From IMG/VR virus record IMGVR_UViG_3300022542_001175: a stretch of DNA of 59,679 nt; one strand, given 5' to 3'. The position numbers and the translations under genes were made by a program. Of this stretch, positions 14,222 through 15,761 are shown piece after piece. The notes beneath the pieces were generated by a model that made no database searches, had not been told where the DNA came from, and saw only the letters and a list, made by a program, of their open reading frames with translations. Position 1 is the first letter of the stretch. Each line of letters opens with the position of its first letter. Source of the DNA: a virus.

Positions 14222-15013
14222 AGCTCGCTCATAATTTCTGGATTCCTTAATTATGTTAGCTCGCTTGATATACATGGATTTCTAATATGTTAAAGCTCGC
14301 TCATTGTACGTGGATTTCTCTCATAGTCTAGCTCGCTTTTCTTACATGGATTTCTTCATGTCAATAGCTCGCTTGTCAAAATTGGATTTCTCAAAACTCA
14401 TAGCTCGCTCTTGTTTAGTGGAATCCTCACAGTGTTTAGCTCGCTCCATGTTGTAGGATTACTCCTTTATTTTAGCTCGCTCAGACATGTTGGATTACTT
14501 CCTGAACATAGCTCGCTTCTACTACTCGGATTCCTTCTTAATCATAGCTCGCTTCAATCCATTGGATTCCTTGCTGATTCTAGCTCGCTCATACAACATG
14601 GATTTCTTGTGTTTCATGGCTCGCTCATAACGTGTGGATTTCATTCTTTGTGTAGCTCGCTCCTTATTCATGGATTACTTCTTGAAAATAGCTCGCTCCT
14701 ATGTGATGGATTTCTCAAAGAAGATAGCTCGCTTTGTCATGGTGGATTTCTCGCTCCTTGTAGCTCGCTCTTGTTTGGTGGAGTACTTTTCCAATATAGC
14801 TCGCTCACTCAGTCTGGATTTCTCGCTAGTCTTAGCTCGCTCATTGACTTTGGATTTCTCCATTTTTTTAGCTCGCTCAGGAAAAATGGATTCCTCGATA
14901 ACGATAGCTCGCTCTGTTCTAATGGATTTCTCTAACATGATAGCTCGCTTAGCGTTGCTGGATTCCTTTTTCCCTTTAGCTCGCACTCGAAGCGTGAGTT
15001 TCTTGAATATCAC
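14222..15013. repeat. 22 x 36-bp phased array: box A TAGCTCGCTY, 8-nt variable, box B TGGATTYCT, about 9-nt variable
   Basis: AGCTCGCT recurs at 14222 + 36k for k = 0..21, with no indel. Box B starts exactly 18 bp after box A in every unit. The intervening segments are unrelated between units. Confidence 0.95.
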
Positions 15014-15761
15014 AGCTCATGAATTCTTCAGGAGCTCTAAAATCAGTGTGTCCTTTTATAGCATGTGCGTATGGTTTAGTCACTTCCAGTCCTTCAGCTT
15101 CTCTCCATTTCAACCATAAATGAGAAAGGAAGAGCTTGATCATCTTCCTCATTGCCATTGTGTCAACGTGTCCTAGAGCAAAATATCCGTCCTTCTCTAC
15201 TCTATTCATCTTTCCTGTTTTAGTATTTTTTTCTTTAGGAAGCTGCGCAGATGGAACTATAGTAAATCCGTCTCCTTCTAATCTTTTTGTGAGTCTCTTT
15301 TTCTGTTCTCGATAATAATCATAGTATTCAGCTTTTGCTCTGATCAAGCTTTTAGCTAGTCTCCAGCACATTGATTTCAACATTTGATTGTAGTGCAGCT
15401 TCTTTCCAGTAGTCCGTCTTTCAGTTTTTCCATTCGCAGGAGCATATCCAGCATAGCGCCACAATTTAGAGATCATCGATGCTTCTTTAATGTCGATCAG
15501 TGATATGACTTTTCCGATGTTCAGATCTCCTACTCCTTTGACTTTTGAAAACCATTCATACGCAGGATGAGCTTTCACGAAATCTTTTAATTCCGTATCT
15601 AACCATGACTCAAAAAGAGCAGTCCGCTCCAGGATCTCATCCGTAAGCTTGCATTTCTTTTTCCTCTTAGAGAGATGAGTCCTCCTCACTTGTGCTGCTA
15701 CTCTTGCTTTCTGGATAAAATAGAGTGCATTTGAAATTACAATAACTTTAGAATTTTGCAT
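14976..15761 (-). CDS. IS110-family Tnp-domain (Transposase_20-like, HhH) protein lacking the DEDD/RuvC-like N-terminal domain
   Basis: WFSKVKGVGDLNIGKVISLIDIK....LWRYAGYAP.NGK....TGKKLHYNQMLKSMCWRLAKSLIR plus the distal MAMRKMIKLFLSHLW follows the PF02371 consensus (IPGIG..TA ... laaYaGL.P ... G...LR..L...A ... ARKLl.ilw). It is only 261 aa and has no D-E-D-D segment. Its last roughly 12 codons lie inside array unit 22. Confidence 0.6.
   Translation of the reverse strand: MQNSKVIVISNALYFIQKARVAAQVRRTHLSKRKKKCKLTDEILERTALFESWLDTELKDFVKAHPAYEWFSKVKGVGDLNIGKVISLIDIKEASMISKLWRYAGYAPANGKTERRTTGKKLHYNQMLKSMCWRLAKSLIRAKAEYYDYYREQKKRLTKRLEGDGFTIVPSAQLPKEKNTKTGKMNRVEKDGYFALGHVDTMAMRKMIKLFLSHLWLKWREAEGLEVTKPYAHAIKGHTDFRAPEEFMSCDIQETHASSAS

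Follow-up and report, generated by a model that had tools for sequence, protein, structure and literature searches.

TIGR-Tas systems were defined by Faure et al. (Science 2025; PMC12045711) and are found in phages and CPR bacteria. Their Tas proteins carry a Nop domain, which stands alone in TasA, is joined to a RuvC domain in TasR and to an HNH domain in TasH. The accompanying TIGR arrays consist of two alternating repeats of 8-12 nt, called edge and loop, together with short spacers A and B. Processing of the arrays yields 36-nt tigRNAs, both ends of which lie midway within an edge repeat, and TasA binds such RNAs. Spacer A and spacer B pair with opposite DNA strands, and a flanking motif is not needed. 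In the structure of TasR, the protein forms a coiled-coil dimer, in which one protomer holds the edge repeat and the other holds the loop repeat. Both repeats share a box D at their start and a box C at their end; these boxes covary across loci, and the loop repeat is A-rich (PMC12045711). In the TasH protein SpTasH, residues Y289 and H296 are the catalytic residues that process the array transcript (PMC13421893). TasA itself is a guide-dependent and reversible repressor of transcription that binds to its target DNA (bioRxiv 10.64898/2026.09.09.750476). According to a proposal of its discoverers, the solo-Nop TasA is ancestral, and IS110 originated from it through a fusion (Faure et al.).

Here, we describe a locus of this kind in a viral stretch of 59,679 nucleotides (IMG/VR record IMGVR_UViG_3300022542_001175), which we refer to as the window. 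Judging by its genes, the source of the window is a tailed phage of nearly 60 kb: it encodes a large terminase, a portal and a tape measure protein (Table 1), as well as head morphogenesis proteins, tail proteins and an M15 peptidase. We propose, with a probability of about 0.93, that the locus belongs to the dual-repeat TIGR-Tas systems, and among them to the TasA type. The system as such is already known, and the locus is a clear example of the described kind, for which a curated NCBI HMM exists.

Table 1. Coordinates of the locus and of tailed-phage marker genes in the window.
Feature	Position	Strand	Remarks
tasA	14976..15761	minus	261-aa ORF; coiled coil and Nop domain, without nuclease domain
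Dual-repeat TIGR array	14221..15004	minus	22 edge repeats, 21 complete 36-nt tigRNA units
Degenerate loop-like repeat	15004-14995	minus	inside the ORF, upstream of the first edge repeat, with 8-nt segment
First edge repeat (degenerate)	14986-14977	minus	within the last tasA codons
Unit 14	14483..14518	minus	example unit
Unit 14 edge repeat	14518-14509	minus	AAGCGAGCTA
Unit 14 spacer A	14508-14501	minus	TGTTCAGG
Unit 14 loop repeat	14500-14491	minus	AAGTAATCCA
Unit 14 spacer B	14490-14483	minus	ACATGTCT
Unit 21	14231..14266	minus	last complete unit; spacer A ACATAATT, spacer B GAAATTAT; followed by the final edge repeat
Last edge repeat	14230-14221	minus	follows unit 21
Large terminase gene	6879-8222		tailed-phage gene set
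Tape measure gene	38170-40971		tailed-phage gene set
Portal gene	54531-56048		tailed-phage gene set

The family assignment is carried by profile and structure comparisons. The NCBIfam model NF052498 (TIGR_Tas_endo, an equivalog with a cut-off of 100 bits) matches TasA with 185.2 bits (E 1.5e-54) over positions 4-215 of its 215 positions. The full name of this model is "TIGR-Tas system RNA-guided endonuclease", although the window TasA is without a DNA-nuclease domain. Searched against solved structures, a profile of 47 homologues matches TaTasR at E 1.4e-34 (9mty, in which TasR is bound to tigRNA and DNA). The TasH entries 21kl, 9w03 and 9w04 follow at E 1.2e-22, and nothing beyond TasR and TasH is significant. 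The match begins at around residue 139 of TasR (domain envelope from 115) and at residue 92 of TasH. This start past the nuclease domains of TasR and TasH, together with the N-terminal coiled coil, identifies the window protein as a nuclease-free Tas protein.

The AlphaFold2 model of TasA (pLDDT 90.3, pTM 0.85) is in agreement with this assignment. Its N-terminus is modelled as a two-helix coiled coil (helices 4-32 and 38-64, pLDDT >93), a region that falls within the alignment of the family profile to TasH. These two long helices correspond to the coiled coil that an earlier note, made from the letters of the window, had placed before a domain resembling the Tnp domain of IS110 recombinases. 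When the model was compared with the PDB using Foldseek, the eleven best matches were all TasR or TasH (TM 0.59-0.71, E 2e-10 to 4e-7). The next tier was formed by the IS110-type enzymes IS621 (8wt6/8wt9) and ISCro4 (9t56), with a TM of ~0.43 and E values of ~2e-3 to 1e-2.

This second tier brings up the question of how TasA relates to IS110 recombinases, with whose Tnp domain the earlier note had aligned it. The 261-aa ORF is present as that note described it and includes the segments KGVGDLNIGKVISLI, LWRYAGYAP, APANGK, TGKKLHYNQMLKSMCWRLAKSLIR and MAMRKMIKLFLSHLW. In Pfam, PF02371 (Transposase_20) alone matches it at E<=10, with an E value of 0.0076. The match extends over TasA residues 71-151 and over positions 4-87 of the 87-position profile, and with 17 bits it stays under the gathering score of 21.3. 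The likeness to the IS110 Tnp domain, which spans the whole profile, is therefore real, but weak, as it is sub-threshold. TasA shares the fold with which IS110 recombinases grip their bridge RNA. Membership in the IS110 family does not follow, given the sub-threshold Pfam score and the lower structural similarity to IS621 and ISCro4 (TM ~0.43) than to TasR and TasH (TM 0.66-0.71). PF01548, the DEDD nuclease domain, gives no Pfam match in the window TasA at E<=10, and the gene upstream encodes a DUF5131 protein and is not an overlooked nuclease exon, so the absence of a DEDD domain asserted in the earlier note is borne out. PF01798, the Nop family of Pfam, does not match the window TasA either.

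Could the gene then be a decayed or domesticated IS110 element, which lost its DEDD domain and its catalytic Ser and whose array derives from bridge-RNA sequence? The whole-profile match to PF02371 and the position of IS621 and ISCro4 as next structural neighbours would fit such a history, and so would a match of TasA to PHROG 4285 (E 2.7e-37), which is labelled 'transposase'. The depositors of 9mty likewise named their molecule "Transposase IS116/IS110/IS902 C-terminal domain protein". Both names, however, are legacy labels that stem from the same resemblance noticed in the earlier note. Searches of metagenomes returned at least 484 homologues of TasA, nearly all of them ~245 aa long, aligning over their full length and without Pfam annotation; one of them comes from a Patescibacteria genome. 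All of these full-length homologues are without a DEDD domain, which shows that the family is stable and not the outcome of decay. The match to TasR and TasH is moreover far stronger than that to IS110 enzymes, and the locus is syntenic with that of a related phage (L007, ~85% DNA identity) without any sign of an insertion. Finally, the ancestral position that the discoverers propose for TasA implies the opposite polarity, which also speaks against the term 'domesticated' used in the earlier note. We therefore consider descent from a decaying IS110 element extremely unlikely, and retain the assignment to TIGR-TasA.

At the candidate position for the catalytic Ser of IS110 enzymes, the window TasA reads Asn-Gly, as had been noted earlier. 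In the family, 42 of 47 members have N or D in this column and none has Ser (0/47), and a nearly invariant Gly follows; the column is the one pointed out in the earlier note, a candidate equivalent of the catalytic Ser of IS621. P230, Y231 and H238 are invariant in the alignment of the 47 homologues. Y231 and H238 sit in a C-terminal loop of TasA and align with Y289 and H296 of SpTasH. With this Y/H dyad retained, the window TasA is probably not inert for RNA processing, and the description 'catalytically dead' given in the earlier note probably does not apply.

The array is built with striking regularity. The anchor AGCTCGC occurs 22 times on the plus strand (once as GGCTCGC), from 14222 to 14978, at an exact spacing of 36 bp and with no indels, which is far beyond chance. 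Each unit, read on the gene strand, consists of RAGCGAGCUA, the 8-nt spacer A, RAGnAAUCCA and the 8-nt spacer B. Accordingly, the per-column information content is ~2 bits in the two 10-nt blocks and ~0 in the two 8-nt blocks. Of these two blocks, RAGCGAGCUA corresponds to the edge repeat and the A-rich RAGnAAUCCA to the loop repeat. Both repeats open with RAG; the loop repeat closes with CCA and the edge repeat with CUA, a minor asymmetry. Across related loci, the start motifs of edge and loop change together: they read GAG/GAG at most loci, GTG/GTG at locus L025 and TG/TG at loci L028 and L038. This covariation is predicted if the repeats are bound by a symmetric dimer.

The array adjoins the 3' end of tasA and lies on the gene strand. 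In line with the earlier observation that the ORF runs into the array, the final 13 codons of tasA overlap both the loop-like repeat and the first edge repeat, and the tail that they encode has low AlphaFold2 confidence. A period that is a multiple of 3 raises the possibility that the 36-bp array is a coding tandem repeat of 12 residues, which would either extend the ORF or be read from the other strand. Mechanically called ORFs of up to 174 aa indeed cross parts of the array. However, none of the frames of either strand stays open through the array. The longest ORF, which accounts for 525 of ~780 bp, runs antisense to every neighbouring gene, and the first edge repeat contains the stop of the tasA frame. 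At locus L004, described below, the gene ends before its array starts. The probability that the array encodes a repeat protein is thus close to negligible, and we read it as a TIGR array of 21 guides.

The tasA gene and all its neighbours share the minus strand. The DUF5131 gene lies upstream at a distance of 18 bp, the other neighbour encodes an unknown protein of 170 aa, and the gene after the array has its start codon at 14178. Scans for promoters and terminators around the locus gave no site above shuffled expectation. An Rfam search of positions 13000-17000 (E<=1) returned a chance lncRNA as its sole match, and no snoRNA. The genes next to the array include no cas genes, and neither L7Ae nor an rRNA-type methyltransferase is present among the scanned genes near tasA. 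A blastn search of positions 13000-19000 against 50,697 phage records found no relative at the DNA level.

The pairing of gene and array is a conserved property, as it is found across phages and on one Patescibacteria chromosome. Among 35 IMG/VR loci encoding homologues, 29 have their strongest periodicity at 36 bp, and this period mostly lies beside the homologue gene, either upstream or downstream. The coupling of the protein to the array, suggested in the earlier note from the window, is therefore upheld and agrees with published TIGR-TasA; likewise, the DEDD-less homologues, which that note had proposed to survey, are associated with 36-bp arrays at most of the loci examined. Three loci were read base by base (L001, L004 and L007), and in each the array lies on the gene strand. 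The array of L001 comprises ~28 units, and this module is placed amid replication and recombination genes. L004, on the Patescibacteria chromosome, is located between gatA and ychF and has ~9-10 units beside the homologue gene. [quoted passage not shown]

A close relative of the window is the phage with locus L007, whose TasA is 95% identical and whose syntenic flanks share the ~85% DNA identity mentioned above. Its array has 11 units, compared with the 22 edge-repeat anchors of the window. Three of its units are common to both phages, and each is bounded exactly from edge repeat to edge repeat, as would be expected if the tigRNA is the functional unit. Apart from the array and tasA, no gene shows a consistent linkage, and upstream genes vary between loci. 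A conserved third component was considered for ORFs of ~105 aa upstream in L001 and L004, but these are unrelated (BLASTP E 11), as are the 466-aa and 476-aa genes that precede them.

With the array this strictly phased, one may ask whether it acts as DNA, as a series of sites (iterons, or a centromere for partition or packaging) to which the HhH-like protein binds directly. The 22 copies in strict 36-bp phase without an indel would suit this function, as would the setting of the L001 module among replication and recombination genes and the ParB-like neighbours that TasA loci occasionally have according to the literature. Several lines of evidence argue for a guide RNA instead. By both sequence and structure, TasA is a homologue of proteins whose solved complexes contain tigRNA, and its RNA-processing dyad is invariant. 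The arrays of L001, L004 and L007 lie on the strand of the gene, and the L004 array is followed by the terminator-typical hairpin and T-run. Furthermore, the variable segments diverge fully while the period stays fixed, a pattern that fits guides better than binding sites. We give direct binding of TasA to the array DNA only a very slim chance, and consider the array a probable source of tigRNAs.

What would such a system do in the phage? Based on the published mechanism, we propose that the array is transcribed in the direction of the gene and that a TasA dimer, joined by its coiled coil, would bind the precursor RNA. Either the Y231/H238 dyad or a host RNase would cut inside each edge repeat, giving rise to 36-nt tigRNAs. 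Each Nop domain would grip one repeat via its box D start (AG) and its box C end (CCA or CUA). The two 8-nt spacers would then pair with opposite strands of a single DNA site of ~16 bp, and no flanking motif would be needed. As the complex is free of a nuclease, it may stay bound and block transcription or another DNA transaction, and the 21 guides would allow for up to 21 addressable sites, be it in the host, in competing mobile elements or in other DNA. The likely function of the locus is thus guide-directed DNA binding and repression without cleavage. The earlier note had envisaged a module that binds RNA or DNA and is not a mobile element, which agrees with the published properties of TIGR-TasA (PMC12045711; bioRxiv 10.64898/2026.09.09.750476) and with the results obtained here.

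Several guides of the window are shared with the arrays of other phages. Seven complete 16-nt guide pairs recur there with at most one mismatch, and five of these seven are found in phages whose TasA is just 60-64% identical. Control spacers, which were reversed, swapped or re-paired, gave no match in other arrays at the same tolerance of at most one mismatch. The guide pair of unit 14 recurs in locus L010 with 0 mismatches and in L008 with 2 mismatches, that of unit 13 in both L008 and L010 with 1 mismatch each, and that of unit 10 in L010 with 1 mismatch. The guide pair of unit 21 is identical in L001 and L014 (TasA 64% identical). In the shared units, divergence is greater in the loop repeat than in the spacers, and the units are arranged in a different order. 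These shared guide pairs fit either selection on particular guides or an exchange of units between phages. It is possible, at somewhat less than even odds, that both processes act, such that some guides are under purifying selection for conserved targets, while arrays evolve by exchange and reshuffling of whole units. Were this the case, the core guides would provide a statistical handle on the natural targets of TIGR-TasA, which are stated as unknown in the TIGR-Tas literature. No mention of shared spacers was found in the two main TIGR-Tas papers.

The literature cautions that short spacers produce many false targets. The target geometry, deduced from the reported 3' overhangs, is spacer B, a gap of 0-2, and the reverse complement of spacer A. 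For all 21 guides, in this and in the opposite arrangement, a search of the 59.7-kb window with the array masked gave no match at 0-1 mismatch. At 2 mismatches, there were 5 and 11 matches, compared with 6.0 ± 2.9 for re-paired controls. With no target in the window above chance, the array does not regulate the phage via sites in this sequence. Guide 14 was additionally scanned against IMG/VR, which gave at least 120 matches compared with 30 for the control arrangement. Of the guide 14 matches listed, 75 represent a single over-sampled prophage sequence; after collapsing, at least 33 contexts compare with 16, and we do not consider this excess interpretable.

Taken together, the earlier note was right in substance, but did not recognise that the system already had a name. 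As a discovery, the locus carries little weight: TIGR-Tas was published in 2025, several structures have been solved, and an NCBI HMM names TasA. Its value lies in correcting the legacy 'transposase' label of PHROG 4285 and of the 9mty deposition, and in providing a clean TasA locus of a nearly 60-kb tailed phage, whose 21 guides do not target the phage's own sequence within the window. Guide pairs that persist across diverged phages could help in finding natural targets.

A comparison with known systems places the locus as follows. Among array-based systems, CRISPR types with non-cleaving interference (type IV and type V-M) offer a functional parallel, as their arrays are processed into unit guides and mediate nuclease-free repression. 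CRISPR repeats, however, are 25-36 nt long with spacers of similar size, whereas the window has two alternating 10-nt repeats and 8-nt spacers. TIGR further differs in its split 8+8-nt guides that address both strands, in requiring no PAM, and in having neither cas genes nor a known adaptation machinery. The box C/D snoRNP, with its Nop5 or Nop56/58 proteins, needs L7Ae and K-turns, recruits fibrillarin and targets RNA for methylation.

IS110 bridge-RNA recombinases share with TasA a related RNA-binding Tnp/Nop-like domain and a coiled coil. According to the literature, IS110 and TIGR also both employ bipartite guides flanked by motifs resembling boxes C and D. IS110 enzymes are mobile and possess a RuvC-like DEDD domain and a catalytic Ser, while the window TasA is without DEDD; they use one structured bridge RNA, in place of which the window has an array of 21 units. 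Closer still are TasR and TasH, with the same coiled-coil and Nop core, the same tigRNA architecture and, for SpTasH, aligned processing residues. These proteins cut both strands and have a RuvC or HNH domain at the N-terminus, whereas the window TasA begins at the coiled coil.

The closest counterpart is the dual-repeat TIGR-TasA system, for example FpTasA of Flavonifractor plautii. Differences are confined to details. The spacers of the window are 8 nt long (next to 10-nt repeats), compared with 9 nt in TaTIGR and FpTIGR, and SpTIGR likewise has 16 variable nt. Box D of the window is AG in place of UG, and the edge repeat of the window ends in CUA. The array, which comprises 21 units, exceeds the 5-15 stated as typical for TIGR. 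There is no difference of kind: both have a solo protein of coiled coil and Nop domain without a nuclease, an adjacent array in which edge and loop repeats alternate and each 36-nt unit has two short spacers, a conserved C-terminal loop with the Y/H pair, and an occurrence in phages and CPR bacteria.

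Array content turns over much faster than the genes on either side of it. This is seen in L007, a near relative of the window phage, whose TasA is 95% identical to the window protein. Because the flanking DNA of the two phages is ~85% identical, yet only 3 units are common to the 11-unit L007 array and the 22-unit window array (counted as edge-repeat anchors), the flanking genes change far more slowly than the array does.

The window array has complete guide pairs, i.e. spacer A plus spacer B, in common with arrays of diverged phages. Allowing at most one mismatch, 7 guide-pair matches were found among the compared arrays (see table), whereas control spacer sets of three kinds gave 0. 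Unit order is rearranged between the window array and those with which it has guide pairs in common, and the loop repeats of common units have diverged more than their spacers.

Several other window genes were noted. Two of its products are radical-SAM-like, namely a DUF5131 protein encoded directly upstream of tasA and a 318-aa radical SAM protein. A 406-aa protein matches PHROG 1706 (E 7.7e-10), which is labelled 'CRISPR/Cas system associated', and has no NCBIfam match. Tandem repeats of 6, 12 and 18 bp (TCTTCG, TTCATCTTCGTCTTCGTC) fall within a 341-aa ORF and probably code for an acidic low-complexity stretch.

At the scale of the genome, the ORFs of at least 250 aa are all minus-strand, with one exception, and the whole window has a negative GC skew. 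Terminase and portal are located at opposite window ends, as expected if this window represents a phage genome that is circularly permuted or nearly complete.

Coordinates of the loci, arrays and window genes discussed in the text
Feature	Source	Coordinates	Strand	Remarks
Compared segment	L007 (IMGVR_UViG_3300029813_000073)	1-5832		compared with window 11478-17858
Compared array	window	14221-14986
Compared array	L007	2826-3230
Compared array	L010	~3780-4460
Compared array	L008	~3860-4550
Compared array	L001	6781-7800
Radical SAM protein	window	5240-6196	-	318 aa; PHROG 9298, E 1e-71
Terminase	window	6879-8222
DUF5131 protein, radical-SAM-like	window	15780-16457	-	CxxxCxxC motif
406-aa protein	window	25466-26686	-
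341-aa ORF	window	48176-49201	-
Tandem repeats	window	48241-48487
Portal	window	54531-56048
TasA gene and array	L004 (Hain_H41_02um_R3_105)	6001-7165		Patescibacteria contig
Array	L040/L041	3420-3834		period 37 bp, clear
Arrays	L026, L027, L029, L035			period 34 bp, weak in all 4

A TasA gene is also found in a chromosomal setting, in Patescibacteria (L004). Here, gene and array (period 36 bp, ~9-10 units) are accompanied by a terminator-like hairpin and T-run, and the locus is surrounded by the core genes gatC, gatA, ychF, infA, rpsM, rpsK, rpsD and rpoA, with no obvious prophage around it.

More distant homologues (25-33% identity) adjoin arrays whose periods differ from 36 bp. The repeat spacing at these loci suggests that the 37-bp and 34-bp periods are variants of the array unit length.
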